Assembly (NCBI GenBank): GCA_040220235.1
Contig: JAVJTO010000096.1
DNA: 64,000 nucleotides
Source of the DNA: Coleofasciculus sp. B1-GNL1-01
GTDB lineage: Bacteria > Cyanobacteriota > Cyanobacteriia > Cyanobacteriales > Coleofasciculaceae
Direction: 5' to 3' (one strand)
The translations under genes were made by a program, and so were the position numbers. This document shows, piece after piece, positions 3,521 to 58,642 of the stretch. The notes beneath the pieces were generated by a model. That model was not told the DNA's origin. It searched no databases and worked only from the letters and a program-made list of their open reading frames with translations. Position 1 is the first letter of the stretch. Each line of letters starts with the position of its first letter.

Positions 3521-3663
3521 CGTGATTATCTTTAATCCTACTCTGAACCTTTATTGGTAACGGTTGAGCGTTTGTGCAGCCAACCCTCGTTATCAAAAAT
3601 TGGATATTGGAAACATCCTAGAATAGTAGACAAAGCGTGACTAAGGCTAGGAGAGTGGGCAAG

Positions 3664-5295
3664 GTGAGTTCACAAGGGAAATGGATCTGCGATGGTGAAC
3701 CGAAAAATAATGATCAGTCTTATGTTGGTACAGGTTCCCATGCTCCCCACGACAATTATGGTCCAGATTGCTCAATCTGTGGCTTGCCCAGAGAGGCGAT
3801 GCAGAAAAAAACGGTCATGTCGGGTAAGGGTGTTAAAATACCACGATTTTCCCTACCGATTCTAGTGGCGATCGCACTCTTAGTTCTGTTGGGTGGTGGT
3901 GTGAGTTGGTATCTGGCGACAAGGGACAATCAGACGCAACCTGTCACCGATAATGAAACGCCAACACCGACGTCACCCTCACCCCAGAACTCTACCGCTT
4001 TACTCAGTGATACCGCCAGTCCAAGTAATGCTTCACTGATGAGTCAGGGTGAAAAGATATTACTGGATACAACATCTGCCAAACAAGCTGGCGCGGCTGC
4101 ATTTGCTCAACAAGATTGGGATCAGGCGATCGCACAATATCAACAAGCGACGACTTCTGACCCCAATGATCCAGAAAGTAAACTCTATTTCAATAATGCC
4201 AAAGCTAGGCAAATCGGTAATCCATTGGCAATCGCGGTTGTAGTTCCGATTACGCCGAGTGAGAATGAAGCCAAAGAAGTGTTGAGGGGTGTCGCATCGG
4301 CACAGGCGGAATTTAACGCCTCTCCAACACCAGCCAATCGCTTACTGGAGGTGATAATTGTCAATGATGATGGCACAGGTAAAACTGCGTCTTTGGCAGA
4401 GGATTTAATTCAATTCCCCACTGTCTTAGGCGTGATTGGACATGGGGTTGATGCCGGAACCCGACAAGCGATCGCACAATATGAAAAAGCTGGGTTAGCC
4501 GTAATTTCACCCGTGAGTACCAATGTGACACCTGACCCGACAGGTCAGTCTATCTTAAAAACTATTTCTCTGGCTCAACAAGACCAGGAATTACTCACCA
4601 CCTATTTACAACAAGTGGGTGAAACCTTGGCAAATTATGCCGCCCAACAATCCTCTCCGGCATCGGTGGTGGTATTTTACAATTCTGACAGTCCCTATAG
4701 CCAAGCTCTAAACGCTCAGTTTACCGCCGCCTTGTCTCAAGGTAAAGGTAAGGTGGTGAAAACGGTTGATATTACTGCTAATCCGAATATTGACCCCGCC
4801 GGGGAAATTCAGAGTGCTACTCAAGCGGGTGCAACAATGGCATTTCTGGCATTGAGTAAGAATAAAGTAGATACCGCGATCGCACTCGCTCAGGCAAATG
4901 CTGCTCAAGCTGAAAACCCGTTAGGTTTAATTGGGGGAGATGAACTTTATAACCCAACCATTTTAATTCAAGGGGGTGATGCGATCGCGGGAATGGTACT
5001 GGCTGTTCCTTGGAGTTGGCAACCCGACAATGCTTTTGCCCAAGAAGCCGCCCAGATTTGGCGAGGTAGAATTAGCTGGCGTACCACCACAGCTTATGAT
5101 GCAACAGACGCCTTAACGACAGCGTTGAGTCAGAACCCCACTCGCACCGGAGTGTACCAGCAGCTTAATCAAGGGATTCCCATTTCTGGGACAGCACAAG
5201 ACTTTAATCTGTTTAATCAAATCCCTCTGGTTAAAGCCGTTCCTGGTTCTGCGGGTCCGACGGGTTCGCGGTATCAGTTTGATCCGGTACAGTAA
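3664..5295 (+). CDS. Membrane-anchored type I periplasmic-binding-protein (LivJ-like) receptor with N-terminal Cys/His motif, TM helix and TPR-like segment
   Basis: WICDG...H..H...CSICG, then TM (LPILVAIALLVLLGGGVSWY), P/T linker, QAIAQYQQA..DPNDPE, and a PBP1 fold (IAVVVPI, LRGVASAQ, LGVIGH, GGDELY, TAYDA). Start could be GTG3637 or GTG3664. Confidence 0.8.
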   Translation: MSSQGKWICDGEPKNNDQSYVGTGSHAPHDNYGPDCSICGLPREAMQKKTVMSGKGVKIPRFSLPILVAIALLVLLGGGVSWYLATRDNQTQPVTDNETPTPTSPSPQNSTALLSDTASPSNASLMSQGEKILLDTTSAKQAGAAAFAQQDWDQAIAQYQQATTSDPNDPESKLYFNNAKARQIGNPLAIAVVVPITPSENEAKEVLRGVASAQAEFNASPTPANRLLEVIIVNDDGTGKTASLAEDLIQFPTVLGVIGHGVDAGTRQAIAQYEKAGLAVISPVSTNVTPDPTGQSILKTISLAQQDQELLTTYLQQVGETLANYAAQQSSPASVVVFYNSDSPYSQALNAQFTAALSQGKGKVVKTVDITANPNIDPAGEIQSATQAGATMAFLALSKNKVDTAIALAQANAAQAENPLGLIGGDELYNPTILIQGGDAIAGMVLAVPWSWQPDNAFAQEAAQIWRGRISWRTTTAYDATDALTTALSQNPTRTGVYQQLNQGIPISGTAQDFNLFNQIPLVKAVPGSAGPTGSRYQFDPVQ

Positions 5296-5450
5296 TATAG
5301 ATATTAATTTTCTCGTCATTCTGAATTCCCTAACAACACAGATAACGATAGGCTTCCAGAATATGAGAAATACATTCTAACCCAAAGATTTGAGGAGAGG
5401 GCGACCCGATCCGATTGAGTGGACTAGAGTTGTTCATTTATGGAAGCGGG

Positions 5451-5648
5451 CATCCGTGTCAACTTAAGGTCAAAAACCAATGCTGGCAAGGTTTTCAGCT
5501 ATGTCTATTTACTGCTCAAAATTTCCCCCTCATCCCCTAACCCCTTCTCCCACCGTGGGGAGAAGGGGAACCAGATTCTCTTACTCCCCTCTCCCCGGCG
5601 TGGGAGAGGGGCTGGGGGAGAGGGGTTGAGCTTAAGTTGACACCAATG
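5451..5648. mobile_element. 198-bp MITE with 18-bp imperfect TIRs and 9-bp target-site duplication, inserted in a REP
   Basis: TIRs CATCCGTGTCAACTTAAG ... CTTAAGTTGACACCAATG. Direct repeat GGAAGCGGG at 5442-5450 and 5649-5657. Host REP arms GGGCGACCCG (about 5399) and CGGGTCGCCCCTAC (5654-5667). Confidence 0.85.
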
Positions 5649-5683
5649 GGAAGCGGGTCGCCCCTACAAGGAAGGCAAGGATT

Positions 5684-5917
5684 ATGAAAAATTCACAAGC
5701 TTCTAAATTTCCTAACAATAATATAGGTGACGAGATGCTTCCAGAATATGACTTTGACTATAGCAAAGCTAGCCCGAATCGTTTTGTCACTCAAACTGAT
5801 GACTCTCCTGTAACAGTTACCCTGGCTCCAGATGTGGCTAAGGTTTTTAAGACATCGGAAGCCGTTAATCATGCCCTGAGAGCCTTACTTTCTGCAATGT
5901 CTGAGGTGACAAAATGA
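5684..5917 (+). CDS. BrnA-like antitoxin (orphan)
   Basis: DEMLPEYDFDYSKASPNRF...VTLAPDVAKVFKTSEAVNHALRALL pattern; RBS-like GGAAGG/AAGG upstream; no BrnT toxin next to it. Confidence 0.65.
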   Translation: MKNSQASKFPNNNIGDEMLPEYDFDYSKASPNRFVTQTDDSPVTVTLAPDVAKVFKTSEAVNHALRALLSAMSEVTK

Positions 5918-6034
5918 GATTATGTCCAGTCTATATCTCTCTGTGCTGTAATTATTCAGAGGCAAAGCTGATCCAGAATATCCCCTCTACGTCGCTTTTA
6001 TACCAAGTTGCATTCACTGTATTAGATCATGTCT

Positions 6035-6526
6035 CTACTCGCCAGCCGCTTGCAGAACATCTGTGTAAAGCTGCTGACTGACTCTAAATCTTGCCTGCAC
6101 AATCAAATCATCCATCACAGGCTTAACCGCCGAAATCATCCCCAGACGTTTAGCTGTAACCAAAACTCCTAAAAGTCCCTTGACTTTCAGTCCATATCTG
6201 GACGCAACGGTTCTACCCAATTGTTCATCAATCAGGAGCAAATCAGCATTGAGTTCAAGCGCCAGGGCAATGGCTTCAGCTTCGCCAGCGTCCAGTTCTT
6301 CACGCAGGGACTCGATCAGCTCATTATCATTATTGGTAAGATTCTGGATTTGAATCCAATCAAGTGTAGGGACAGTTGCGGCTTGGGTGTAAATTGTCGC
6401 CACCTGAGCGATTTCATCGGCAACAGCAGTGGGAATAATTATAGTGTGGTAAACCTGTTGCAGTAGAGGGAGATTCCCCAGAACGGCTAAGTTACTGATA
6501 GGTGAAGTGTTGCTAACGACAATCAT
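6035..6526 (-). CDS. DUF3368-family PIN-domain toxin
   Basis: MIVVSNTSPI, LDAGEAEAIALA, LLLIDE and GLLGVLVTAK motifs; ATGA-type overlap with the upstream gene. Confidence 0.9.
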   Translation of the reverse strand: MIVVSNTSPISNLAVLGNLPLLQQVYHTIIIPTAVADEIAQVATIYTQAATVPTLDWIQIQNLTNNDNELIESLREELDAGEAEAIALALELNADLLLIDEQLGRTVASRYGLKVKGLLGVLVTAKRLGMISAVKPVMDDLIVQARFRVSQQLYTDVLQAAGE

Positions 6527-6768
6527 TGTGGATACAAAGTATTAATTGTTTTAAGATCTTCTTTGAAATCCGCAACATCGTAATGAACACAGATATCCCG
6601 ACTGGCAATCAAATGCTGGAACTGGATTAGATTCATCCCCAGTAACCGACTGGCTTTGCCGATGCTGATTTTTTTCTGCTGGAAAAGCATTAGCACAATT
6701 TCTTGAATCAACTCGGCTTCTGAGAGTCGTGAGGCTTTAACGATTTCATCAGGAATGGTAACGCTCAT
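6523..6768 (-). CDS. UPF0175-family antitoxin
   Basis: LFQQKKISIGKASRLLGM...F..L....I...YD..DF.EDL pattern; directly upstream of the PIN gene. Confidence 0.9.
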   Translation of the reverse strand: MSVTIPDEIVKASRLSEAELIQEIVLMLFQQKKISIGKASRLLGMNLIQFQHLIASRDICVHYDVADFKEDLKTINTLYPQ

Positions 6769-6811
6769 GCTTATACCTCGCATCCATATAAATAATCAAC
6801 ACCTATAATTC

Positions 6812-6949
6812 CCCTGGTTTGGGCAACCCGCTTGCACGAATGAACACCACCCATCCACTCAATTGACTCGGATTGCCCTTTCCTCAACGGAGAATGAAAC
6901 CTTCCGCCGGAACGTTTCTACCCGATTGTACAAATTGCCCAAACCAGGG
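6812..6949. mobile_element. MITE-like element with perfect 15-bp terminal inverted repeats
   Basis: CCCTGGTTTGGGCAA (6812-6826) and TTGCCCAAACCAGGG (6935-6949). Confidence 0.65.
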
Positions 6950-7001
6950 AAGCCTTATAATACAGGATAAAACACTGATTTAAAATTCTATAGGATTTCT
7001 G

Positions 7002-7907
7002 GTGCTTCGTTATCGTCGCCGTCTTTGGTTGTATCCCCTATTCCAAATCCCCTTAATCTGTTTGGGTATATGTTTAGTCGCGGCTGTATTGTTTGCCTTA
7101 CTCGGACTGGGTAGACCATCGGTAGCCGTCGCGATCGCGTTAGATTTAAGTAGCAGTACCTTCTCTGAACCCTCCCAGTTTAACCAACCGGGTACGGTGA
7201 TGTATCAGGAAGTTATCGCTGTTGAGTCTTATCTTGACCAAAATGCTCAACTGTTAAGAGTTCCTAATCAAATTCAGGTCTTTGGTTTTGCGGGAGTTGT
7301 TTTACCCCTGACCGATTCCTTTCAAACCGATAGTCAACAGGTAAGTGCTGAATTGAACCAGGCGTTGCAAAATCCTAACCTGATTCAGCGAATTGTACCG
7401 GGTACAACGGATTTGAATTTAGCGATTCAGGAAGGAACAGACGCCTTAAGTCCAATTCAGGATCATTGCCGGGAATTACTCTTAGTCACCGATGGGGAAG
7501 CTGACGTTGATGCTGAGGTGATTCAAGCCGCCGCCGCCCGTCGGGTGAAGATTAACGCTGTTGTCGTGGGTGGAGACGCGCCTGATTTACGCAACGCGGC
7601 TGCTACTACAGGTGGGATCTATCACTCTGGTCAAGTCACCAATTTAGAAACTGTTTTCACGAATCAATTCTTTAGGAATTTTAACAGTAATCGACGCTGG
7701 GTTATTTTTTGGCTGGGTGCGGCTTGGATTTCTCTGATGTGGTTACTCATCCTCCCCTTAGATCGCTGGATTTTCCAAGGATGGCTAAAACTGCCCATGA
7801 ATCTCGCGGGTCAATTAGCGTTAGGCAATGCCTTCTTCTGGACAGTCGCCACCCTTTTAATTGTTTGGCATTTAGCTAAAGGATTACCATTTATTTCACT
7901 ATGTTAA
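7002..7907 (+). CDS. Membrane-bound von Willebrand factor A domain protein
   Basis: MIDAS-type DLSSS, GTTDL...AI and LLLVTDGE motifs; one N-terminal and two C-terminal TM segments. Confidence 0.9.
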   Translation: MLRYRRRLWLYPLFQIPLICLGICLVAAVLFALLGLGRPSVAVAIALDLSSSTFSEPSQFNQPGTVMYQEVIAVESYLDQNAQLLRVPNQIQVFGFAGVVLPLTDSFQTDSQQVSAELNQALQNPNLIQRIVPGTTDLNLAIQEGTDALSPIQDHCRELLLVTDGEADVDAEVIQAAAARRVKINAVVVGGDAPDLRNAAATTGGIYHSGQVTNLETVFTNQFFRNFNSNRRWVIFWLGAAWISLMWLLILPLDRWIFQGWLKLPMNLAGQLALGNAFFWTVATLLIVWHLAKGLPFISLC

Positions 7908-7917
7908 TTGTTTCATC

Positions 7918-8021
7918 TATAGCGTTTTCATTTGAGTTGTGAACCCCACCCCTGCCCTCCCCTTGCTAAGGGGAGGGTTTGGGAGGGGTAATATTTTCAC
8001 GTTTCATTTGGAACTGCTATA
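7918..8021. repeat. TATAGC...GCTATA-ended MITE-like repeat with an internal GC-rich hairpin
   Basis: TATAGCGTTTTCATTTGA left end; TCATTTGGAACTGCTATA right end; internal CCCTCCCCTT...AAGGGGAGGG. Confidence 0.55.
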
Positions 8022-8260
8022 TTACTCAATCCAATCCTCTTTTCATTAGAGTCTCACACCTCTATCAATCTGTGAAATCAGTGCGACTAACCTGCCAAAG
8101 CCCCAGCTCAATGATTGCTGTAAATCTGTGGAATCAGTGTTTTTCTATGGTATACTTTTCATTATGGGAAAATATGCCTGCCTATAGACTCGACACATAA
8201 GGCTTCAGACAAAAAGCGACAACCCCTACCAATTCTCGTTCATTCACCAAAGAAACCACC

Positions 8261-11200
8261 ATGGCAACTCAAGTCGAAGAAAAAAGCATGGTTCCCACTA
8301 TCCTCATTGGGATTGGTGGCACCGGTGCCGAAATCGTCTCCCGAGTCCGACGCTTAGTTGCAGAAACCTACGGCAACTTAACCAACTTCCCCATCCTCAG
8401 CTTCCTGGTTATTGACACCGATAAAGACTATAAAATCAACAACCCCGACGCCGCTGGTTCCCCTTTAAAAGATAACGAAAAACACTGGGCAAGTGTCAGT
8501 GGTAAACAAGTCCGGGATATGGTGTCTAATATGGAAAACTATCCCTGGATTAATCGCTGGTTTCCTAGAGAATTAGAACGCAACATCACCTCATTAGAAG
8601 CCGGTGCCGGACAAATTCGTGCCTGTGGGCGATTTGCTTTATGGTGTAACTATCACGAGATTCGGGATAAATTTATCGCCGCCTGTCAACGGGTGAAAGG
8701 GCGGGAAAATTTTATGTTAGATCGCTATGGAATAAAAGTGAGTACCAATGCGATTAATGTCTTCATCACGGGGTCTTTATCCGGGGGAACGGGCAGTGGA
8801 ATGCTCATCGATATGGGCTATAGTATTCGCAAGTGGTTAGAGGGAGAAGGCAGTCCCCTCATTACCGCCATTGTCCCCATGCCGAATGCGTTTGTGGGAA
8901 TTAGTGTAGGCGATCGCGTTTTGGCAAATGGCTATGCGGCTTTAATGGAATTAAGTTATTTCTCCGACTACCGCACCGAATATGTTGCCCAATTTAGTAA
9001 TAGTTTAACCGATGAAATCCGCAGTCAACGCCCTCCCTTTGATTTCACCTATTTAGTCGGCACTAAAAACGGCGAAAGTGACTTTAAACTGGATCAATTG
9101 CGGGAAATGATTGCTCAGAACATTTTCCTAGATTTAACCTCAGATTTTGCCCCCCATAAACGCTCAATTCGCGACAATATTAAGGGGGCTTGGGCGCAGG
9201 CTGATCCGGGGGGACGAGGGTATCCCAAGAACTTTATGAGTTTTGGTTTGTCTACGATAGAAATTCCTATCGCTCAAATTAGAACATCTTTATCGAATCG
9301 TTTGGCAAAGGATTTAATTGGGTGGTGGTTGAATGAGTCGGTGCAATTACCGCCGCAATTGTTGGAATTGGTGCGAGGGGATATCCTGAAGCGGATGCGG
9401 TTAACTGAGGCGGAATTAATTGCTGATTTATCAGCGGCGGCAGATCGGTCTTATTTAGCCGTCATTTCTGAATGGGTCAATAGTATTCGTAATGAAATTG
9501 CCACCGATAACTGGCTGCAATGCACCCAGCAAGGGGTGAAGATGTTGGCGTCGGAAAAGGGGAAGATTCTGCGATTTGTCGATGGGTATCTCAAGCCAAA
9601 GGTTGATAATTATCGCACCGATCATTTTCGCGAAATTAGTCCCGATGAACGGTTACATGGGGACTTCCTGAAAAAGATGTACGATAACCGAGATCAATTG
9701 ATTAAACGGGGGCGGAAAGCCTTAGAGGATGAGTTTTATCAGATTCTAGAGAACCGCCGTCAAGGACCTAAATTTGCCGATGCTTTCTTAGCAACGGTGC
9801 GACAGATTTTTGAGGATGCCAGTGATAAGTTTCGCCGGGAACAGGATAAAATTTGGTCACCGAAGGAATCGGAACGCCAGCGACAATATGAAGCGGCGCT
9901 GCAAGATATTACTGAATTTAAGGATAAGTTTGGTGTGACCAAACAAGCCAAAATGGAGGAGTATTGTGAATCAGCCCTGATCGGGTTAGAAGGCTGTTTA
10001 ACGGCAACGATTCAGCGGAAGGCACGGGGTCTCGGATTGGAGGTAATTAGTCGGTTACAAGAACATTTAACGGTATTAGAGCGGCGATTCAACCGATGGA
10101 AGCAAAAGCTGATTCAGGCACGGGATTTGTATCAGGAAAAAGCGAATCGGCAGGCGGAGAGTGCGGATGCTTTAGTGATTAATGGGATTAAGTTGTATGA
10201 CCGACAGGAACTGAATGGATTATATCAGGATTTAATTGAGCAGTTGGCAGGGGCGTCGGAGGGGAGTCAAACGGCTTATGAGATAGGCATGAATGGGGTA
10301 TGTAGTACGGTATCAGAAGAAGTGCTGAATTTAGCCAGTCCCTTGTGGAAAGAAACCCGGATGGCAGATGAGGTAATGCGGTTATTTGATATTACCGAAA
10401 TCCCGGATGTGCAAGATGAGGATTTGCGGCAGATTATTTTGGATCGCAGTCAGGCGGTGGTGGCGAAAGCCCCGCAGAGTAGTAAATTGCAGCAAGACTT
10501 AGCCGCGTGCGATCGCCTGTTCAAGGTATTTAATGATGATGCGGAGATTGTGAATAATTTACGCATTGCTTATAACAAGTCTAAACCGTTAATTCTGCTT
10601 GCGCGATCGGTGTTAACCGGGAAAGATGCTGGATTTACCCCCGCAACGAATACGAATGTAGCGCTATTGGGTGGGCGGAATACCAGTGATCCAGCCGCAC
10701 AGAAAATTATCCCTAAATTAGAAGAATTTCTGGGAAATGAGGAATCGATGAAACCCTTGGGAGATTTAGAACGACATCGCCTGGTATTTGTCCAAGAAAC
10801 AGGCGGATTTTCCCTACGTTGTATTGATGGGATGAAAGAATTACGCCAATCCTATCAAGATTGGAAAGGGGAAAGTATTGTGGCGAAACGGGCGCAGTTA
10901 CGGGGAGAAAGTCGCGATTTACCGATTCCCGTACATCTGCAAAAAGAACCGCCGTTTTGGGATGTGTTTCCTGAAGATCCGGCTATTTTTAGTTTAGTGG
11001 TTCAAGCACGGGCGCTGGGGGTATTGCGTCAAGAGGAAAATCGCACGACAAAGGAAACGGTGATTCGCTATACTCGGCAAACGGCAATTGGTGCAGAATC
11101 GGTAGATATTGCTTCTAGTTGGGAAGAAGCGTCTCAGGTGTTGGAGGTGTTAGCTTGTCGCCCAGATAGGGAAGAGATTCAGCGTCAAGTGATGCAGAAG

Positions 11201-11560
11201 CTGAATGCAGCAGAAACGCCCAGACAAAAGCAAGCCATTTTTGGGCAATTGACACAGTATTTGGAACAACGGGCGTTGGAGTTGGATAAGCAGGGGGGAA
11301 AAGATAGTCCTGATTATAAGCGAGAGGCGCGGATTTTGTTGGATGTGATTGAGCGGTATAAATTGAAGGTAGAGAGTCAGTCTGTGTCGCCAGGGGTTGT
11401 GCAGCAGCCTCGGAGTGATGGGGGGAATGCGCCAACTCAGATTGAGGCGAAGAGTGTAACGCCGCAAGCCCATGTTTTCTGTACGAATTGTGGGACGAAG
11501 AATCCTAGTAATTCTAAGTTCTGTTTTAAGTGTGGCACTCAATTGGTTAAATTGAACTGA
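8261..11560 (+). CDS. Tubulin/FtsZ-like GTPase (Tubulin_2 / FtsZl1 type) with long helical/coiled-coil region and C-terminal zinc ribbon
   Basis: IGIGGTG, IDTD, GAGQIRACGR, GSLSGGTGSG (tubulin signature) and ANGYAALMEL motifs; C-terminal CTNCG...FCFKCG. Confidence 0.92.
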   Translation: MATQVEEKSMVPTILIGIGGTGAEIVSRVRRLVAETYGNLTNFPILSFLVIDTDKDYKINNPDAAGSPLKDNEKHWASVSGKQVRDMVSNMENYPWINRWFPRELERNITSLEAGAGQIRACGRFALWCNYHEIRDKFIAACQRVKGRENFMLDRYGIKVSTNAINVFITGSLSGGTGSGMLIDMGYSIRKWLEGEGSPLITAIVPMPNAFVGISVGDRVLANGYAALMELSYFSDYRTEYVAQFSNSLTDEIRSQRPPFDFTYLVGTKNGESDFKLDQLREMIAQNIFLDLTSDFAPHKRSIRDNIKGAWAQADPGGRGYPKNFMSFGLSTIEIPIAQIRTSLSNRLAKDLIGWWLNESVQLPPQLLELVRGDILKRMRLTEAELIADLSAAADRSYLAVISEWVNSIRNEIATDNWLQCTQQGVKMLASEKGKILRFVDGYLKPKVDNYRTDHFREISPDERLHGDFLKKMYDNRDQLIKRGRKALEDEFYQILENRRQGPKFADAFLATVRQIFEDASDKFRREQDKIWSPKESERQRQYEAALQDITEFKDKFGVTKQAKMEEYCESALIGLEGCLTATIQRKARGLGLEVISRLQEHLTVLERRFNRWKQKLIQARDLYQEKANRQAESADALVINGIKLYDRQELNGLYQDLIEQLAGASEGSQTAYEIGMNGVCSTVSEEVLNLASPLWKETRMADEVMRLFDITEIPDVQDEDLRQIILDRSQAVVAKAPQSSKLQQDLAACDRLFKVFNDDAEIVNNLRIAYNKSKPLILLARSVLTGKDAGFTPATNTNVALLGGRNTSDPAAQKIIPKLEEFLGNEESMKPLGDLERHRLVFVQETGGFSLRCIDGMKELRQSYQDWKGESIVAKRAQLRGESRDLPIPVHLQKEPPFWDVFPEDPAIFSLVVQARALGVLRQEENRTTKETVIRYTRQTAIGAESVDIASSWEEASQVLEVLACRPDREEIQRQVMQKLNAAETPRQKQAIFGQLTQYLEQRALELDKQGGKDSPDYKREARILLDVIERYKLKVESQSVSPGVVQQPRSDGGNAPTQIEAKSVTPQAHVFCTNCGTKNPSNSKFCFKCGTQLVKLN

Positions 11561-11630: not shown

Positions 11631-11663
11631 ACTGACTTATAACTGAATTGTAACTGAATTATG
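11631..11663 (+). promoter_or_regulatory. Three tandem 11-bp direct repeats (candidate operator)
   Basis: ACTGACTTATA-ACTGAATTGTA-ACTGAATTATG upstream of the COP23-trypsin gene. The identical first 11-mer occurs on the minus strand at 17581-17591 and 19280-19290. Confidence 0.6.
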
Positions 11664-11786
11664 TATATAGCCTAAGAAATAAGGATATGATCTGATTAGC
11701 TTGCCAATAATGGTTCAGCAAAATCTAATTGCGATTTTATTTTTTGGGTCAATCAAGTATTTGGCAGTATTTTGAGCGGAGTAACT

Positions 11787-13028
11787 ATGAAAATTTGGTC
11801 GTTATTATTAGGTACTGTCGCCGTGACTCTGGGTGTTACTACATCGATGAATTTGTCTAGTCATGCCCAAGAGCGAGCGCCTACAACGTTCTACTGTGGT
11901 AGTCATAATGGTCAGCCAGCAACAATCGCTCGGCATGCGACACGGGGAGAAGTAGTCTTGATTATCTGGAGTAGCAGTTATTTTTCTAATTATGGCTATC
12001 CTCCTCAACGGCGCTGTGAAGAAGTTTCCCACAGGTTTCAACAAAATCATCAAAGTGGAGTATTAAACTATATTTCTTCTGGTAGATATAAGGGTTTTCC
12101 TGCACTATGCGCTTCTCGTAGTATCTCTGATAGGGTTGTTCAATGTCCTGCTGAAAGAGTTTTAGTAACCCTAAGACCCGGAGAAGATCCTCAGGAGGTG
12201 ATTTCGCAATTGGCTAATATAAATACTGGCAGTTCAACTTCTCCATTGATCTTTTATGAAGATCACATTCAACAATCAGGAAACCACTATATTGCAATTG
12301 ATGTTGGTGTGTGGATCAGATTCGCCCAATATTCAAGAAATTCTTCAGAATACATAAACTCTATTTCATGTAACTATTCTTTATCTAGACCCTGCCAAGA
12401 TGAATCTAATAGACCTGATGTGCAAAAACTAGCTACAAGCTTCACAGTTATCATTGTCAGTTATAAAAGTGTGCTGGAAAATGAAAATAGAACAGTTATT
12501 GTTGGTTCTGGAGCAATCATTGCTCAACAAGGAGACACTTATTATGTGCTGACCAGTGAACAAGTGGTCAACAATATAGCTGACTATGAAATTTTTACTC
12601 CTGATAAAAAAAACTATCCTGTCATATCTATTGAAAGACTATCTAACTCTGATTTAGCTATTTTAGAGTTTAAGAGTGAAAGAATCTATCAAGTTGCGGC
12701 AATTGGTGATACTAGTCGCTTGACTGGAGGAAATGCTGTGTATATTAGTGGTGACTTATATTTAGACGAAACACAAATATATCAGCTAGCTGAGGGACAA
12801 CTTACTGATACGGCAATTCCTGCTGATACGGCAATTTCTAGCCATAGAGCGCGTCTAGATTATACTAACGTTACCACAAGACCGATGAGAGGTGGACCAG
12901 TATTGGATGATAAAGGTGATCTAGTTGGAATTCACTTGAATGCTGGTTCTGGTATTCCAATAGACGTTTTTTTACAAGCAGCACCATCAGAGTTATTGAA
13001 CATTATGTACAAGAATGATTATCCTTGA
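11787..13028 (+). CDS. Secreted COP23-domain / trypsin-like fusion, probably catalytically inactive
   Basis: Signal peptide ending SHAQ; COP23-like FYCG...PATIAR...IIWSS.YF...GYPPQRRCEEVSHRFQ. The trypsin-like domain has VLTSEQVV (His lost), SDLAIL (Asp kept) and PMRGGPVLD (Ser lost). Confidence 0.8.
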   Translation: MKIWSLLLGTVAVTLGVTTSMNLSSHAQERAPTTFYCGSHNGQPATIARHATRGEVVLIIWSSSYFSNYGYPPQRRCEEVSHRFQQNHQSGVLNYISSGRYKGFPALCASRSISDRVVQCPAERVLVTLRPGEDPQEVISQLANINTGSSTSPLIFYEDHIQQSGNHYIAIDVGVWIRFAQYSRNSSEYINSISCNYSLSRPCQDESNRPDVQKLATSFTVIIVSYKSVLENENRTVIVGSGAIIAQQGDTYYVLTSEQVVNNIADYEIFTPDKKNYPVISIERLSNSDLAILEFKSERIYQVAAIGDTSRLTGGNAVYISGDLYLDETQIYQLAEGQLTDTAIPADTAISSHRARLDYTNVTTRPMRGGPVLDDKGDLVGIHLNAGSGIPIDVFLQAAPSELLNIMYKNDYP

Positions 13029-13072
13029 TAATTGACAAAGCTTAAGCCTTTAATATATTGAGAGATAAAAAA

Positions 13073-16000
13073 CTATCTATCCAAGCAGATATTGAATTCT
13101 TTTCTAATTTGAGGATGAGTAACTAGGTAATTTTCTAACCAGTCGCATCCTTGATTTAGCAATGCATCTAAGTCGTCCAGATCTGGAGTTTTTTCTCCTA
13201 ATAGTTGTTTAAACGACGGCTTAGATAACTGCCATAGTCTGACTACACCATCTTCTCCGGCGGTAGCGAGTCTCTGTCCATCCGGACTAAAACTTGAACT
13301 ATACACCTTGCCTTCATGACCAAATAATCCAAGAGGAAATCGGCTAGATTGAGTAGTTTCCCAGAGCCATACTGTACCATCCTCACCAGCAGTGGTAAGA
13401 ATAGGGCGAGAAGGGTCAAAGCTAAGGTGATTTATTCCAGATTGACGGCTATCAAAGTCTTCTACCTTCTGTTCTGCTACATTCCAAATTCGGACTTGGC
13501 TATTCTTACCTGCCATAGCAATCTGCTTTCCGTCAGCGCTAAAAATGATACTTGTAAGGATACTACTGCTACCCCTTGCTTCCACTTTCTGTTGTCCTTC
13601 TAGTGTCCAGAGTTGAAAAATGCCATCCTCTCCACCCGTGGCAATCAACTCTCCATCCGGACTAAAATTTACAGTTGTTACCGCATTTTGAGAAACTTGC
13701 CATTGAGCTTTAAGTTGCCCTATCAAGTTCCAAATCTTAACTGTACCATCCTTGCCACTCGTCGCAAAAAGTTGTCCATTTGGGCTAACACTAAAACTGG
13801 TAACGCCACCGGAATTAACTTGCCATTGAGTTTGTTGCTGTCCAGCTAAGTTCCAAATCCGCACAGTACCATCCTCACCCGCACTAGCTAGATGTTTTGC
13901 AGCAGTTATAAATTGCACACTACTCACACCACCAGAATGCGCTTGCCATTGAGTTTGTTGCTGTCCAGCTAAGTTCCAAATCCGCACAGTACCATCCTCA
14001 CCAGCACTAGCTAGATACTCTCCATCAGGACTAAAACTTACACTCATTACCCTACCTTGATGACCCTTCAATTGATTCTGCTCGTGAATACTATCCAAAA
14101 TGACCTGTAAGTGCAACGAAGTTCTAGCTACTAGCTTGCTAGTGCTAGAATCAGGAGTACCATGTTCGGCAAATTTCTTGACCTTTTGTCCAGCCTGCAT
14201 TATCAATAGCAGGGCTTCTATCTCTTTGAACTCTCTTTTGTCAACAGCTTTCTGTATTAATTCCTCAACCAAAAGCTTAGAGCGAGCATTGAATGCTTCT
14301 GTTTCAGCAACCTCGGCTCTCTGAGTTGCTAGTTGAACTTGCTGCTCGGCTCTGTCCAGTTCAATCGCTTTTTGCTGTGCCTGCTGAGTTACATTTTTTA
14401 AGGTTTTCCTTGCCGTGGTTAATTGTTGATTGGCTTCTTGAGCTTTCCTTTCAGCTTCTTGGCGTTCTTCCTTAGTCAATTGAACTTTTTGATTAACTTC
14501 TTTAAGTTGAGTTTCAACCGCTGTTAAGTGTTGGCTAGACTTTTGAGCCTTCCGTTCAGCTTCTTGGCGTTTATCTTCAGCTAATTTAACACTTTTATAA
14601 ACTACTTTTAATTGAGTTTTGGCATCCTTTAATTGGTTATTTGCTCTTTCAGTTTCCTGTTCTGCTTGTTCCCATTTATCCTCAGCGACTTGCGCTTTTT
14701 GACTAACATCTTTTAGTTTTGTTGTCGCACCCGCTAGTTGGTGAGTTTTCCTCCCCGCATATAAACTAGCAGTTACGGCAGCAATTAAGGATATTAACAG
14801 CACAATTGAACCGATACGAATGCTTCTATTCGCTCTTCGTTGAGCCGCATATAATACTCGATTAGCTTTTTCTACACTCTCTAATTCCTGTCTAACTCTT
14901 TCTGCTTCTAAAGCCTTCTGACTTTCTTGCCGATCTAATTCTTGACTAGCATCTAAGAACCGATAATCTTGAGGCATTAAATTTTTGTCGGCTGCCCAAG
15001 CTTTGGCATCTTGTAAAGCCTTGCCACGCAATAACCGTGACTCATCCTGACCATGAGAATCTAGCCAATATTTCAGCGCCTCTGCATAAGGACGCAACTC
15101 CGACAACTCTTTAGCACTCCAAGCCCAATCAAAGACTAAACCATAGAGGCGGTTGTAAACTCTCAAACTGCCTTCTAGCTTCACCACCAACCCAGACAAA
15201 CGCAGTTCCATTTGTTCGAGGCTGTCATCAGCAATAATTTCTCCCTGCTGCAAAATTTCCTGGTAAAGCCCCAACAATCGACCCTTACGCCGTTCATTCC
15301 ACAGCAGGCGATCGCGAATTGTCCGCAAATGCTCTGGATTGTCCCGCGATTCCCAGTTCTTGATCAAGTGCGATCGCACTAATCTCTCTACTGCCTCTGC
15401 TTCCTTGCCAACCGCAATAAATGACCCCGAAGTAGCAACGATTTGGCAAAGCTTTTGAGTCAGAAATGGCTGACCCCCCGTCCAATCTAACACCACAGCT
15501 AACACCGCCTGGGGATCATGACTAATCTCAGCTAATCCCTTGGCTAACGGTTGTGCTTCCTGCAATTGAAAGCCATAGAGTTCAACGGCTCGTCCAATAT
15601 TAAACGGGGTGCGCTTTTTATCTTCAATAAAATCAGAAGGCGTCGCCACTCCCAGTAATGCAAAAGTCAAGCGTTTATAAGCAGGCTTATCTACCCGTTG
15701 GTTGTAGAATGCTCGGATCAGGGCAAAAAAATCATCGGTCAAGAAATTTAAACTGAGAACATGATCAATTTCATCGATGAAAATTACAATATTTTCCGCT
15801 ATCTCGACCAGCAGCACTTCCTCAATAAACTCTCGAAAACGCTGCACAGGTGATAGACAATTACGCTCTTGCCACCAAGTTCTGCGATTAACTTTTCCCG
15901 ATAAATCGAACTCGCTGACTAAATCGTAGAACAATCCCATATACCAACTGGCTAGGGTATTCTTGTCACTACCAATCAGTGTCAAATCGAGAGCAGCACA

Positions 16001-16210
16001 GCGAATACCCTCAGCTTCCAGCCGTTGCATCGTTTGCAATCGCAAGCTGGACTTCCCCATCTGTCGCGAGTTCAGCACATAGCAAAAGTTTCCAGCCTTC
16101 AGCCCTTGATACAGGTTTTGATCTGCCTGTCGCGTGACATAACTTGGTGCGTCCGCTTCCAAGCTTCCGCCAACTTGATATCGGTAGGTTGAACCTTGCA
16201 CTGTACTCAT
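13073..16210 (-). CDS. AAA_35-type NTPase - TM helix - coiled coil - WD40 beta-propeller protein
   Basis: YQVGGSL...YVTRQAD, Walker A-like NSRQMGKS, Walker [21 protein letters not shown]; hydrophobic [16 protein letters not shown]; about 7 WD40 repeats ([18 protein letters not shown]). Confidence 0.9.
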
Positions 16211-16219
16211 TTTCAACGC

Positions 16220-17503
16220 TTAATTCCCTAGGCGATCGCGCAAATAATTACTATACAAATGATAGCGAGGTTTGACCTCATTTCCCTCTAACTGCACCAG
16301 ACCCAAACTTTGTAATTGAAAAGCTAGCATGGATTCTAATTGCACCGGATGTGTTGACTCGACTACTATTTTCATTGCCATTGCCAGTTCTGGATGCTCC
16401 TGCAAATTGCCCAAATGTCCCCGCAAATGATTAGCGTAAATTCCCGCTTCCGTACAAGCCTTTTGCAGCAGTTCCTCCAGGGTGATTTCGGAGCGAGTCA
16501 GGTGATAGATTGCCCTCTGTACGAGATAAGGATGTCCTCCCACCAACGACATTAGCTGATCCACTTGTGAACCCTGCCAATCCAATCCTTGTCGCTGTGC
16601 CAAATCCTGTACTTGTTCCCGGTTAAACTCCGGTAATTCTATGGACTCACCAACATTAAACGGCGACTGATGAATATTTAGCTCAATATACACTTCCGTG
16701 GAATGGGCAACAACCAACCGCAGTTTTTTCCAAAGCTTACTTCTCTTTCCTTTCTCATACCAAGCTCGCAGCATCGCCAAAAAGTTCCCAGCAATTGCAG
16801 AATAAGGAAAAATACGATCCACGTCATCTAACGCTAAGACCAAGGGATGCTCTAATTGACTGAGCAAATATTCCTCAAAATAAATTGTACAGCTCTGGCT
16901 GCTACCTAACTCGTCTACCCAATAATCAGTCAATTGATCTCGTAGTCTCAACTCGCGCCCCACGACACCACAGAACCAGCGCAGGAATTTATCCAGACTG
17001 CTTAAGACCGACCCATCGGCTAGCAGTAAACTTAAATTCACAGTTCGATACTTTTGTTTAGTTGCTTGAGCCAGAATCCTATCAATCAGCCAGGTTTTGC
17101 CCATTCGCTTCGGTGCTTTGATCCGCAGCAGGGAACCCGGTTGCAAGATTGTCTCATTGCAGCGAGATTCGATAGGAGGTCGCTCCATATACTCAGAGAC
17201 GGCTGTTCCTGTTTCCTCCCCAGAACAATCAACCGTAGCCAATTCCAACGCCTCTGCTGAAAATGCGCGATCGCTGCGTTCGTCTTCAAGATCAGCGATT
17301 TCCTTCAACTCTAATCCCAATCTTTCGCAAATTTCATAAAACGTCGCATAATCAACACGTCTACCATTGAGGAAACTACTCACTGTGGACAAAGCAAGCT
17401 GTAACTCCTCGGCTAGGTCTCTCTGGCGGAAAAAACCATTATGCTTAACTGCTCGTTTGACCCGTTCGATATACTGGGGGGAAATTCTTAGCGATCGCGA
17501 CAT
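16220..17503 (-). CDS. HTH (XRE-like) - AAA_35-type NTPase
   Basis: N-terminal QRDLAEELQLALSTVSSFLNG HTH; KAPKRMGKT, LALDDVD, HQSPFNVG and VGGHPYLV motifs. Start ATG17503; the ORF track starts at 17530. Confidence 0.9.
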   Translation of the reverse strand: MSRSLRISPQYIERVKRAVKHNGFFRQRDLAEELQLALSTVSSFLNGRRVDYATFYEICERLGLELKEIADLEDERSDRAFSAEALELATVDCSGEETGTAVSEYMERPPIESRCNETILQPGSLLRIKAPKRMGKTWLIDRILAQATKQKYRTVNLSLLLADGSVLSSLDKFLRWFCGVVGRELRLRDQLTDYWVDELGSSQSCTIYFEEYLLSQLEHPLVLALDDVDRIFPYSAIAGNFLAMLRAWYEKGKRSKLWKKLRLVVAHSTEVYIELNIHQSPFNVGESIELPEFNREQVQDLAQRQGLDWQGSQVDQLMSLVGGHPYLVQRAIYHLTRSEITLEELLQKACTEAGIYANHLRGHLGNLQEHPELAMAMKIVVESTHPVQLESMLAFQLQSLGLVQLEGNEVKPRYHLYSNYLRDRLGN

Positions 17504-17619
17504 GACTAATCCTTGAATGAAGCTAATCACATCATAATCTGCTTGATCATGACCTCAAGGGAACTGAGTCAGAAGTCGGTTATAAGTCAGTCATGAGTGT
17601 ATAGCTTATTGGTGGATTA
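17405..17619. repeat. Copy 1 of an approximately 215-bp direct repeat (5' end and upstream region of the HTH-AAA_35 gene)
   Basis: Aligns base for base, with scattered substitutions, to 19104-19318. Confidence 0.9.
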
Positions 17620-17686
17620 GAATTGTAGGGGCGCTAATGGTTTCTAGTTTAGTTACCAATGAAACCCAAGGCAATAAACAGTAGTC

Positions 17687-17878
17687 TTACTTGCGTTCCT
17701 TCTGTTGCCCAATAACTTTAATCAGTAGGGCGATGGAGCGAATTAGGACAGCGATCGCGAAGATGGTTTCAGGTACACTGCCTACTGGAACCTGTAGCGG
17801 TAGATTTGGCTCGACATGAGTTGGTACAGCAATGAGTGGTTCACCAGTGTGGATAATTTGATGTGCTTCACCTTGCAT
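17687..17878 (-). CDS. Small protein with a C-terminal hydrophobic helix
   Basis: 63 aa; AGGA RBS upstream of the ATG; TIFAIAVLIRSIALLIKVI followed by a basic tail; directly upstream of the AAA_35 pair. Confidence 0.55.
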   Translation of the reverse strand: MQGEAHQIIHTGEPLIAVPTHVEPNLPLQVPVGSVPETIFAIAVLIRSIALLIKVIGQQKERK

Positions 17879-18143
17879 GGTGTTTTTCCTAACTCTACAG
17901 TCTCATCCTCTAAAACCGCTTATTGAGGTCGAAACTGAGCAATGCTTGACTTGATAACTGAGTTCGTGACTGACTTACACCCTCAACCCTAATCGCTGCG
18001 TTAAACTGAAGTTCCCCTAGCAGTAGACACATCGATTAGGACTTTCAGCGCCATTGATTGTAGAGACGCGCCATGGCTTTCAGCAATCAGGTTTGGCATT
18101 TCGTTTCCCAGAGTGACAATAGAGCGATAAGTCCCGTAGTCCT

Positions 18144-18372: not shown

Positions 18373-18652
18373 TTATCTCCGAGTTCTAAAATTATTTGTC
18401 CACAAATTGGGATCGGGGCGATAAGCCGTCACCACATATCCTGTATCCATAGATTCATTATGAAAATACAACATGAATGGGTTGACCTTCGACAAAATCT
18501 AATAACAGATAACTAGGAAACGGCTTATCATATAGATTTTATTCGATCACTTCCCCATAAGCAACAACAGTTTGTACATCAGCTTTACTAATTCGGCGTA
18601 GAAACATCTGTTGGATAGCATGACGTGAAAAAACTAGATTTTGACAATCCAT
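18373..18652 (-). pseudogene. DUF4258-family toxin pseudogene
   Basis: Manual translation: MDCQNLVFSRHAIQQMFLRRISKADV..VVAYGEVIE*..DKPFPSYLLL...PIHVVF, then a frameshift into VVTAYRPDPNLWTNNFRTRR*. Confidence 0.85.
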
Positions 18653-19103: not shown

Positions 19104-19318
19104 CTCCTCGGCTAAGTCTCTCTGGCTCCAAAAACTATTACGCTTAACCACTCGCTTGACCCGTTCGATATACTGGGGGGAAATTATTCGCGATCGCGAC
19201 ATGACTAATCCGTGAATGAAACTAATCACATCATAATCTGCTTAATCATGACTTCAAGGGGATTGAGTCAGAAGTTGCTTATAAGTCAGTCATGAGTGTA
19301 TAGCTTGTTGGTGGGTTA
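19104..19318 (-). pseudogene. Duplicated 5' fragment and upstream region of the HTH-AAA_35 gene (repeat copy 2)
   Basis: MSRSRIISPQYIERVKRVVKRNSFWSQRDLAEE matches the N-terminus of 16220..17503, then diverges abruptly. Confidence 0.85.
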
Positions 19319-19439
19319 CGGCGAGATAGTTATTAAACAGTCATTCGTGCTGATTAAATTCCCGCCTAACCCACCCTACGTGGCACACCCAATTTTATGA
19401 ATTAGGATTAAACTGTAGGGGCGCACCGACGTGCGCCCT
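19309..19439. repeat. Two REP-like palindromes
   Basis: GGTGGGTTACGGCG...CGCCTAACCCACCCTAC and GTAGGGGCGCAC...GTGCGCCC. Confidence 0.7.
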
Positions 19440-19626
19440 TTTTTCACACCAATGTACGCCCCATTCAACCGTAACTTTCCTCTCACAATAAGCAACACCC
19501 TCATAAACTTCGAGCCTAAAATTAAGAGTCATTCCTAGAATCTTGATAGGCTTTGACCTTTTCGTATAAACTAGCAACAAACCTAGCAATTGAGTAGCCT
19601 TTCCCAATTATTGGTGTCATAATTTA

Positions 19627-29179: not shown

Positions 29180-29370
29180 AGTTACACCGGAATGAAGGAG
29201 TCACGATTAAACGGTTCACTGTCATCTGTCTCTGAGGGATTGACCCTTATGCACTTTTTTGAGAGTTGTAACGTTTATTCATAACCGGGATGAAATTTTT
29301 ACCAACGTGCATAAGTTCCCACTGCTGAGAGATATATACTAGAAAAGTATGGTTTGGGTTCAAATTGGTG

Positions 29371-32300
29371 ATGAATCAAAGCTGGAAATATTGGTGGTGG
29401 ACATTCGCCGGGATTGTTGGAATTGGCGGCGTTTTTGCGTTCTGGGATACGGCTGCTGTGGCTCAGATTACACCGGATACTACCCTAGGAACTGAAAATT
29501 CCGTGGTTACGCCCAATGTAGATATCCAGGGACTTCCGGCGGATTTAATTGAAGGTGGGGCGACACGGGACGCGGCGTTGTTTCACAGTTTCTCTGAGTT
29601 TAATGTTGGCGAGGGATTGCGGGTTTATTTCGCCAATCCGGTGGGGATTGAAACGATTTTCAGTCGGGTGACGGGGAGTGATGTCTCGGATATTTTGGGA
29701 ACGTTGGGAGTCAATGGGGACGCCAGTTTATTTTTGTTGAATCCCAATGGGATTATTTTTGGAGAAAATGCGCGGTTGGATATCGCGGGTTCGTTTGTGG
29801 CGTCTACGGCGAATTCTGTGGTGTTGGAGAATGGGGTGGAGTTTAGCGCTACGAATCCTGAAGCACCGCCGTTATTAACGATTAATTTAACACCAGGATT
29901 GCAGTATGGGTCAAATTCAAACGGAAAGATTGCCAATGCTGGGACGTTAGAAGTGGGTGTCGGTGAAACCCTGAGTTTGTATGGCAATACTGTCACCAAT
30001 ACCGGGATACTGACAGCACCCGGAGGAACAGTACAGGTATTAGGCGATCGCGTGGGATTGTTCGAGAATGCTCAAATTGATGTCTCCAGCGAGATGGGAG
30101 GCGGTACGGTATTGATTGGTATAGCTGAGGAAGCGAATAACCTATACATTCCATCAGTTACTCATGCTAATCGAACCTTTGTCAGTCCTGATACCATTAT
30201 CAATGCCAATGGAATTAGCAATAGTGATGGTGGTAACGTATTGGTTTGGTCGGATGAAGTCACTCATTTTTATGGCACGATTAGCGCCCGTGGGGGTGAA
30301 ATGTCTGGTAATGGTGGCTTTGTGGAGGTTTCGGGGAAAGACGTTTTAGAGTTTGATGGATTAGTCGATACGACTGCCGCGAATGGAACAACGGGAACAC
30401 TACTCCTTGATCCGACAAATATCGAAGTTGTACTTTTTGCAAATGAAACTGATAATTTAAATGATGTTGATGGGTTTGCTGATCCAGATATTGGGGCTGA
30501 TGGTGACACCAAAATTAATGCGACGGCGATTAACAATGCTGCGGCGGATGTCGTGCTTCAGGCGACCAATAATATTATTTTTAATGCTGCCGTTAATATC
30601 CGACAATCTGGCATCGGACTTACCGCCCAAGCCGGCAACACGATTACCGTTAATCGACGCATTGCCACGCCGGGTGGTGATATCCAATTAATCGGTGGCA
30701 TAACCTCTAATAATGGTTCTATTTTTATCAACGACGATGTTCGCTCTCGTGGGGGAGATATCGTTCTCCAAGCTGGTGGTGATATCGTAGTCGAGGAGGC
30801 GACAGTCAATACCGAATCGGGGTTTCTCGGAGATTCGGGAGACATGACGATTGAAACAGGGCGGTTAATTCTTCAGAATAAAGGACAGGTAGACACCAGT
30901 ACATTTGGATTGGGTAACGCCGGGAATCTAGATGTCCGGGCGACTGAAATTGAAATGACTGAATCCGTGAACGCTTCATCTAATATTCTTACAGGTATTG
31001 CTGCACAAACCAATCGAGGTTCTAGTGGCAATGCGGGTAGGATTACCATTGAAACAGAACAGTTAACCGCTGGAAATGGCGCACAAATAACTGCAACAAC
31101 ATCGGGTTCTGGAAATGCTGGAGAAATCATTGTCAGAGCGTCGGAAATTGAACTAATTGGCGACTCGTCATTCAATGGTTTTCCGAGTGGAATTTTGGCT
31201 AACAATCAACCGGGAAGCACAGGAGTCAGTGGCAAAATAACGATTGAAACCGAACGATTAATTGCCCGTGATGGTGCAGGGGTTTATGTTTCCACGTTTA
31301 CGGGTGAAGAGGGTGGGGAGCTAACTGTTCAAGCCTCTGAGATTGAATTAACCGGAACGGGCAAGATTTATCCCAGCGCTTTGTCTGCTCAAGCGCATCC
31401 AGGCGCAACCGGAAATGCTGGGCAAGTAACGATTGAAACCGATCAGTTAATTGCTCGCAATGGGGGGACTATCACAACGGCGTCAACGGCTGGCAATGGT
31501 GGAAATCAGACAATTCAAGCCACCGATTTTATCGACCTAGCTAATGGCGGGTCTATAGTGGCTAACGCGGCGGCAGGATTTGGTGGGACTATCTCGATGG
31601 AAACGAGAAATTTGACCCTTGAAAATGGGGGAATTATTAACACTAGCACGACGGGTCAAGGCGATGCTGGCAGTATTGCCATTCGCCAATCCGAATCCGT
31701 TACGGTAGACAAAGGGAGTGTGATCTCAAGTCTATCGTTTGGTTCAGGAATAGGGGGTAATCTTTTAATCGAAACGGGAACTCTTACGATTCGTGATGGT
31801 AGTGGTGTGGTCACCAGTACAGCGGGTCAAGGGAGTGCGGGAAACCTAACAGTACAAGCCAAAAACTCGGTTAATGTAATCCGTGATGGTCTATTATCAA
31901 CAGGTACTCTCGGTACAGGAACTGGTGGAAACCTTTTAATCGAAACCCGAAGTTTAAATGTCCAAGACGAGGGTAAAGTTTTCAGTAGCAGTTTAGATGC
32001 CAGTACATTTGATTTGAACAGTCTTGACCCGAACCTTTATTCACCTGATTTAATTGAACGAATTCGGAATAATGTTAATATAGCCGCTCAAGGAAATTTT
32101 ACTCAAGGGGATTCAGGAAACCTGATTGTTATTGCCACAGACTCCGTAAATGTGGCGAAGAATGGAGTGATTTCGACACAAGGTCGGGGTGAAGCATCCG
32201 GTGGCGATTTAACCATAAATACCCAACAGTTAACGGTTGATAACGCTGGTGCAATCGTCACGGATACCTTTGGTTCTGGTAATTCAGGAAACTTAACCAT

Positions 32301-33447: not shown

Positions 33448-33460
33448 TGAAAGCCCCATT

Positions 33461-34276: not shown

Positions 34277-34665
34277 AGAGACAAATAATCCTTATCTTCG
34301 ATAATCCCCATATCTGAATTATTGTAAGGGATAAGGGGTCAAACCCCTCATTGGTTGATCAGAGTCTCCTTGGAGTTGATGAGTAAGTATCACTGGGAAA
34401 TGACTGCTGAGAACGATGATAATCTCTGTTTACTAGCCTTCGACACAACAACGATAAAAGCTTTACTGGATGAAGGTTTCAAGGGTTTGAGGCGTCAGTT
34501 TAAAGTACAGTTCTCATATTTTGTCTGACTCAGCCTCAGTGTATATACGGATTTTGATTTCAGTAGTTATTAACAAATTCCCGTAATTTACCCGATTTTT
34601 TCAGGCTAGGGTTTTGAATAAGATTGACTTGTAAATCAAACAAAGCTTTTGAGGAATTCAAGTCA

Positions 34666-35157: not shown

Positions 35158-35451
35158 CCACAAGGTTATTCGTCAATCTTCGCTTTTGTCTAGTCAATTA
35201 GCTGCTGGGGAAATCGAGGGGAATGTAACCCTAGCAGCTAATTATTCGCTTGAACAATACTTGAACAGGCAAAATTTAGCACCATGTTTGATTACACTAA
35301 AAAAATTACCTTTTTTTCTAACCTTGCTGTCAAAGCGTTTCAAATTTGATGGTTGATTGTTCATCGTAGATTATTAATTGCTATGAACAATAAACCATGA
35401 ACTATAAACATAAAATACCACTTTTTTTAAGCAGACGTTAATATCTGCCCT

Positions 35452-58586: not shown

Positions 58587-58642
58587 TTGCTGCTACATTA
58601 TTCGGCAATTTATATGAAATAAGTCGATATCAGGAGGAATCT

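Follow-up and report, generated by a model that had tools for sequence, protein, structure and literature searches.

The locus at positions 11631-17979 of a 64,000-nucleotide (nt) stretch of DNA from Coleofasciculus sp. B1-GNL1-01 (contig JAVJTO010000096.1, assembly GCA_040220235.1; the window) raises the question of whether a membrane receptor and a DNA-binding regulator can signal to each other through paired AAA_35 nucleoside triphosphatase (NTPase) domains. A first-pass annotation of the window likened the locus to a two-component system built from such domains and proposed four parts: a helix-turn-helix (HTH) AAA_35 protein (A), an AAA_35 protein with a membrane helix, stalk and WD40 propeller (B), a secreted COP23-trypsin protein lacking catalytic residues (the COP23-pseudoprotease) and a small hydrophobic peptide. 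The locus was followed up in its own genome, an 8.66 Mb cyanobacterial draft, and in related genomes, with genes called from the list of open reading frames (ORFs) and Pfam matches. What the annotation observed was confirmed and its interpretation is partly supported. The reading favored here, on a modest balance of the evidence, is that A and B are two halves of one split STAND receptor-activator switch that would work through phased operators and have the COP23 gene as a target.

All four genes of the locus are real. A lies in an ORF that spans 16220-17530 on the minus strand. Its start likely is the ATG at 17503 (16220-17503, 427 aa), because a TATGAT box occupies 17536-17531. The protein joins an XRE-like HTH (HTH_3/HTH_26, residues 22-84) to an AAA_35 STAND NTPase (E 1e-142). 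B follows on the same strand after a gap of 3 nt (13073-16216), and Pfam, repeat searches, modeling and hydrophobicity together describe an AAA_35 STAND NTPase (E 2e-31), a helical linker, a transmembrane (TM) helix at residues 468-486, a coiled-coil-like stalk with three 35-aa repeats (14413-14727) C-terminal of that helix, seven WD40 repeats and two C-terminal Cys residues. A and B score 474.8 and 109.2 bits, respectively, against AAA_35 (PF14516), for which the curated cut-off is 27. The COP23-pseudoprotease gene (11787-13028, plus strand, 413 aa) converges on B and encodes COP23 (PF14218) and Trypsin_2 (PF13365) domains behind an N-terminus that is signal-peptide-like as judged by eye. The fourth ORF (17687-17878, minus strand) encodes a 63-aa peptide with a hydrophobic C-terminal helix and has no Pfam match, but is accepted as a gene because it has 13 conserved, non-identical homologues of 62-63 aa with 67-78% identity. 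The gene layout is as first described.

The A and B profiles are homologous (99.7%) at 19% identity. AlphaFold models of the two proteins (predicted local distance difference test, pLDDT, of 93 for A and 87 for B) yielded NTPase regions that matched PAB2304 and SSO1545 best (Z 19.5-20.8, root-mean-square deviation 3.7-4.2, 290-315 aligned), with further matches to plant resistosomes, CED-4 and Orc1/Cdc6. The matches to PAB2304, SSO1545, resistosomes and CED-4 are full-length and cover the nucleotide-binding domain, helical domain and winged helix of the STAND fold; when the A profile was searched against the sequences of solved structures, only short P-loop matches came up. Walker A and Walker B motifs are present in both proteins. 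In B, Walker A RQMGK[ST] and Walker B DE are found in 100% of 79 sequences. The GK of A is likewise present in 100% of 114 sequences, the first Walker B acid is D in 93%, the second is E in 53% or D in 24%, and Arg-255 is conserved in 97%. In a 1:1 model of the complex, the helix of A that bears Arg-255 is predicted to pack on the P-loop side, or nucleotide face, of B. The model scored 0.70 compared to 0.00 for the best of three controls, with run-to-run contact agreement of ≥94% and pLDDT ≥84, and the mark applied to this score is reached by 116 of 157 solved pairs and by 2 of 215 mismatched pairs. The modeling supports an A-B complex, as expected from the heteromer that the annotation had proposed. 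Two points weigh against this inference: the score may echo solved AAA+ rings, such that any head-to-tail AAA+ pair would reach it, and the three controls did not include A-A, B-B or non-cognate A-B pairs.

Gene neighborhoods gave a second view of the pair. The genome contains 21 A-type and 19 B-type AAA_35 genes (one A and two B are partial), among which nine co-oriented pairs with A followed by B and one convergent pair were observed. In a survey of 131 related A loci, with pairing counted on non-redundant full-length A relatives that had 2 kb of downstream DNA, a co-oriented B lay directly downstream in 40 of 66 and a divergent B in three, which bears out the recurrence of paired AAA_35 genes; across the phylum, 36 of 121 genomes were found to have AAA_35. 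The distances among A and among B proteins correlate across the ten pairs of the genome (Mantel r 0.85, P 1e-4), a correlation that reflects the joint history of A and B and not contact. It equally is expected from pairs that duplicated together, and 11 of the 21 A genes are not paired with a neighboring B; both points count against the favored reading. It is very unlikely that A and B form separate homo-oligomers, neighbors through an old tandem duplication, with A regulating only the operon. The homology of the two profiles, the invariant GK of both proteins, the invariant Walker B of B and the approximately half of copies that are unpaired would fit such an arrangement, whereas pairing has persisted despite ~20% identity between A and B, the pair distances correlate, the heterodimer model passes, and A has no sensor domain and B no output domain.

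The domains attached to the two NTPases are consistent with a division of labor. Within the genome, A-type proteins carry XRE or LuxR HTH, TIR, kinase or trypsin domains in front and sometimes GGDEF behind, with CHAT in some copies of A-type genes, whereas B tails comprise WD40, CHASE2, periplasmic binding, GAF, GUN4-LRR or cyclase domains. In related loci, B tails also include TPR, peptidoglycan-binding, histidine kinase and COP23 domains. On the evidence of gene order and domain content, A and B are one copy of a recurring two-gene STAND module in which A would be the output and B the receptor. At the locus type of the C88 paralogue (L148, L311, L320), the B tail is a periplasmic binding domain, or WD40 followed by COP23 and trypsins, depending on the genome, which shows that sensors are exchanged at one locus. 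In L312 (4988-7138) and L164 (4754-7291), an XRE-type A gene is followed by a B-type NTPase joined to a histidine kinase (and receiver), a combination that links the A-B module to phosphorelays. Elsewhere in the genome, an HSDR_N gene lies between A and B of the C88 paralogue (L018 6848-7534), CHASE2-type B genes adjoin DUF928 genes (L017, L022, L006), and a frameshift divides a trypsin-TIR-AAA_35 gene (L023 5352-7521).

The same inventory bears on whether the switch is real but serves in defense, as an anti-invader device resembling paired NLRs (receptors with a nucleotide-binding domain and leucine-rich repeats), with transcription one output among cell-damaging ones. This is unlikely. TIR, kinase, trypsin or CHAT domains on some A-type copies and the WD40, TPR and LRR repeats of B would suit that role, the locus is patchy (intact in two of nine same-genus genomes searched) and flanked by toxin-antitoxin-type genes, and another paired STAND operon has been read as counter-invader in the portion of that study available (PMC8195603). 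However, ordinary sensors (CHASE2, GAF, periplasmic binding proteins) make up many of the B tails, the outputs include GGDEF and histidine kinase, and this copy has no toxic effector domain among its Pfam matches, although no search for defense families was made.

For the split switch to sense outside the membrane, the propeller of B must be exposed there. B has a single hydrophobic helix, preceded by five K/R residues and followed by three, and a scan of residues 1-60 revealed no hydrophobic helix and no signal peptide. A TM helix follows the NTPase in 54 of 68 full-length B proteins, with more K/R before than after in 43, fewer in four and equal numbers in seven. B proteins that have no TM helix carry GAF or kinase domains, and CHASE2, periplasmic binding and peptidoglycan-binding domains are among the tails that lie behind a TM helix. 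On three counts the portion of B beyond its membrane helix most likely points outward: there is no signal peptide, the positive-inside bias is 43 versus 4, and periplasmic domains occupy the same slot. The annotation had also placed the propeller outside. The propeller may, however, lie in the thylakoid lumen, a point against the favored reading.

The connection to DNA was suggested by repeats. The borders that the annotation drew for the locus, 11631 and 17979, coincide with repeat arrays that it did not mention. A repeat search detected a 30-nt likeness between 11631-11660 and 17562-17591, both of which consist of three copies of ACTGAnTT with a period of 11 bp; the general unit is ACTGA[CG]TT every 11 bp. 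Upstream of the COP23 gene, three direct repeats ACTGA[CA]TT (11631-11663, plus strand) are followed by a TATGAT -10 box (11686-11691), 33 nt past the start of the last repeat. The A-B promoter (17531-17591, minus strand) has three repeats at 17591-17559, and the spacing to its TATGAT box (17536-17531) is again 33 nt. The last unit stops just short of the -35 region on the upstream side, which is the usual position for an activator site. In a genome search for triple CTGACTT with ≤3 mismatches at period 11, only four sites emerged: those of A, the COP23 gene and two other genes with the same HTH; matches to arrays of period 15 were many. In other genomes, 14 of 29 non-redundant genes for XRE-type A proteins (reduced from 44, with L144 excluded as near-identical to the window) had CTGACT upstream, compared to 0 of 53 other A genes, and spacings between copies peaked at 11, 22 and 33. 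A matrix built from 16 of 28 of these XRE-type A promoters from other genomes, after one mis-called gene was dropped, was applied to 17.3 million positions. Among three-unit arrays it ranked the COP23 promoter first and the A promoter third, with ranks 2 and 4 going to the A genes of C88 and C12, which had orthologues among the training promoters. The A promoter ranked first for two-unit arrays. In 8 of the 16 training promoters, the distance from the last unit to the start of a TAnnnT box was exactly 33 nt, and in five it was 44 nt.

A blind search for the array produced 64 matches in 39 of 251 genomes compared to eight control matches. Thirty of these sites were fetched: 11 had this HTH within ≤800 nt, nine of them 18-99 nt upstream and in the same sense, with three of the 11 representing one orthologous locus, one of them in the genome of the window. 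Two more sites adjoined an A-type gene and several others preceded proteins with signal-like N-termini (by eye). Overall the ACTGA[CG]TT array marks promoters of this HTH subfamily and is a candidate operator. The same HTH also is fused to other STAND types at G000 C94:86293, C49:12440, C151:36589 (iSTAND) and C4:57945, where the genes have their own 11-bp phased repeats, often with a divergent small hydrophobic ORF. Certain points tell against the favored reading: 12 of the 28 training promoters have no array, the seed of the matrix was picked after the window repeats were known, and the position of the array is the sole guide to activation rather than repression. Moreover, the box is shared by at least five paralogous HTH proteins of this genome, so that the COP23 promoter could be read by another paralogue.

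The first-pass annotation regarded the dead protease as ligand, co-receptor or output. Alignment corroborated the loss of catalytic residues: His is replaced by Gln-259 and Ser by Arg-368, whereas Asp is kept, and the active His-Asp-Ser triad of S1 proteases is absent. His and Ser also are lost in the three closest homologues, P0001, P0002 (from Coleofasciculus, the closest named homologue) and P0003, with Ser changed to Arg or Lys and one His to Asp, but are retained in nine other trypsin domains aligned. COP23 was surveyed at 60 loci, with a single locus per cluster selected among 85 matches in 31 genomes; the genome of the window, the orthologue in genome G003 and most of the 274-aa class were excluded. 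An AAA_35 gene lay ≤8 kb from 4 of the 60 loci versus 2.8 expected (P 0.31), the expectation being based on the high AAA_35 density of the window genome and possibly too high. A post hoc subset of the same family gave 4 of 24 versus 1.1 expected (P 0.023). On the count over the 60 loci, COP23 was rejected as a core part of the A-B module. A trypsin gene was present at 33 of the 60 loci, and a protein atlas search with the COP23 domain returned COP23 clusters only, with scores under 0.8. The reverse count found COP23 in or beside 6 of the 131 A loci, approximately four independent events compared to 0.6 expected at mean density (P 0.004; P = 0.11 at three times that density). These cases include two B-COP23 fusions and a COP23 gene 29 nt behind B (L148). 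The tie between COP23 and AAA_35 is at most weak and recurrent. Thus, the protease is not a conserved partner, but is a likely output because it shares its promoter box with A; the COP23-pseudoprotease probably is an output of the A-B switch that is local and exchangeable.

It is doubtful that the COP23-pseudoprotease is a passenger, functionally unconnected to the receptor, that captured a copy of the A promoter. The lack of general co-occurrence is compatible with a passenger, as is the lack of a COP23 gene at C88, the closest paralogous pair, in the same genome. The two promoters are alike around the -10 box; the first repeat of the COP23 promoter, as well as 16 of 17 nt counted from that box, also occur in the A promoter, so that the former may have begun as a copy of the latter, which weighs against the favored reading. 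A further point against that reading is that the array was found at none of the 60 other COP23 loci. Yet G003, which carries the whole locus at 87% identity, retains the array and its 33-nt box spacing before the COP23 gene though the flanks and 5′ coding end differ: 26 of 33 nt of the array are alike compared to 10 of the preceding 40, the array is improved (matrix score 40.5), and the 5′ end of the gene matches a nearby paralogue, itself without an array, at 90% identity. The approximately four independent events in the reverse count, including the fusions and the L148 gene, also argue against a passenger. The fusions bring in the further idea that the protein is a periplasmic co-receptor or ligand carrier for the propeller, induced by feedback. 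In L031 and L032, B ends in an outer COP23 domain, and the partner A proteins there share 62-65% identity with A of the window; catalytic loss is common to all four clade members down to 36% identity. Nevertheless, a co-receptor is an unlikely role, as the two fusions are one lineage and most WD40-type B genes have no nearby COP23.

The split switch that is preferred, with the COP23-pseudoprotease as an output, would work as follows. B would span the membrane once, with the NTPase inside and the stalk and propeller outside, and a signal at the propeller would open the NTPase, a direction of signaling that we infer. Opened B would join A head-to-tail, with the Arg-255 helix of A on the nucleotide face of B as modeled. 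Assembled A subunits would bring several HTH domains onto direct repeats spaced by one helical turn, just upstream of the -35 region, where they would activate transcription in the manner of MalT. The predicted targets are the A-B operon itself and the COP23-pseudoprotease gene. More broadly, and tentatively at just under an even chance, the locus may represent a large, kinase-free class of cyanobacterial transmembrane signaling in which a STAND receptor and a STAND activator co-assemble, one supplying an arginine to the ATP site of the other, and read phased operators, with the secreted target possibly feeding back.

The 63-aa peptide belongs elsewhere. Its profile matched 14 of 401 genomes, and in 10 of 12 loci outside this one the peptide gene stands head-to-head with a gene of HTH-STAND type (AAA_16-like, in most cases with a TPR gene behind it, once NACHT). 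The remaining two are fragments without an HTH-STAND gene, and L309, found by DNA search, raises the tally to 11 of 13. The peptide was rejected as a dedicated A-B part, its profile having matched only this locus and two near copies among the loci scanned. Beside it, three repeats of 12-bp period (17945-17980) are followed 33 nt after the last by TAAACT (18002-18007), on the plus strand. This array is first in the genome at period 12, is oriented away from the peptide gene and has a homologue in the array that faces an HTH-STAND gene in L299; G003 has lost two units. The comparison indicates that peptide and array were carried in from another HTH-STAND module, the array being the putative relic promoter of the lost partner gene. 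The peptide and its array may or may not be under the control of A. Thus, with COP23 accompanying trypsin genes and the peptide another HTH-STAND type, the proposal of a conserved four-part system is not supported.

At 19104-19318 (minus strand), repeat search and matrix recognized a 215-bp duplicate (90%) that covers the promoter of A and its first 42 codons. It leads into a DUF433 gene, an ORF at 18410-18643 that we take to be DUF4258-like, and a YgiT-type zinc-finger gene, and also is present in G003 and G007; A may control these toxin-antitoxin-type genes. Short elements at 18018-18077 and 19310-19445 recur at many sites in the genome. Before the unit, a periplasmic-binding/TPR protein, a vWA-like protein of 301 aa and a Tubulin_2-zinc ribbon gene (3637-11560) keep their order in G027, G037 and G031 (vWA-tubulin in G029), where the A-B unit is absent. 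In L113 (G004:C7, ~1900-2850) the unit is deleted and the tubulin 3′ end is fused to a fragment of the dead trypsin domain. The window further includes a TPS-domain protein and a large carboxypeptidase-regulatory-domain protein (29365-38481), and three tandem TPR genes (57342-61015). Seven metatranscriptomes match part of the window; contigs from four cover A, much of B, the peptide gene and little of the COP23 gene, in data that do not distinguish strand, level or DNA carry-over.

If the favored reading is correct, AAA_35 pairs, whose genes number 40 in this genome, would join two-component systems as a second kind of cognate sensor-regulator pair and would be the first STAND switch to carry a signal through a membrane to DNA. 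With its fixed spacing, the operator would allow regulons to be predicted and give a handle on the induction of a COP23-family gene. AAA_35 probably belongs to the Npun2340/2341 family of MNS-clade STAND NTPases; the likeness lies in the best structural matches, SSO1545 and PAB2304, which we take to be MNS-type STANDs. A link to the Synechocystis Hat WD-repeat protein may exist. The accessible portions of PMC4057619 and PMC2491639 do not give the architecture of Hat. Kaur 2021 (PMC8195603), in the part available, mentions the Npun2340/2341 family by name, but the paired STAND operon that it describes is another one, and the available text of Kaur 2020 (PMC7159879) has no mention of Npun or COP23. 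The literature searched contained no receptor-regulator mechanism, operator or target for the family and, as the annotation had supposed, no study of the A-B module or of AAA_35 function, although Leipe et al. (2004) may already note the pairs.

Two-component systems resemble the module in having a membrane sensor with a DNA-binding partner, cognate gene pairs and exchangeable input and output domains. However, Pfam detected no HisKA/HATPase or receiver domains in A or B, and coupling here would be by NTP-dependent assembly. In the nSTAND2 two-gene system, as far as the accessible part of PMC8195603 describes it, two adjacent STAND genes also are predicted to form a hetero-multimer, but one of the partners there has eroded NTP motifs and GT4 or HEPN domains. 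Here, Walker A is present in both proteins, only the second Walker B acid of A varies, HTH and membrane-sensor fusions occur instead, and no GT4 or HEPN fusion was found in the Pfam matches of A, B or their paralogues (best five families per protein for the latter). COP23 beside or fused to trypsin domains is familiar from cyanobacterial COP23-trypsin clusters, whereas in this instance the protease domain is dead and a candidate operator array precedes the gene. The proposed mode of action resembles that of MalT. According to the part of PMC4381067 available, this STAND transcription factor forms a head-to-tail multimer, which attaches cooperatively to several boxes and recruits RNA polymerase. 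Arrays of boxes, in this case phased repeats at a fixed distance from the -10 box, occur at the putative target promoters here also, with binding being predicted. MalT is a single cytoplasmic chain with its sensor and a C-terminal LuxR HTH, as in the LAL family, whereas the window encodes two chains with an N-terminal XRE HTH and a sensor that most likely lies beyond the membrane. The four parts of the locus are not conserved as one system. Overall the two-gene module is real and recurring, a variant of STAND signaling to which this locus adds a candidate operator array and a predicted target.

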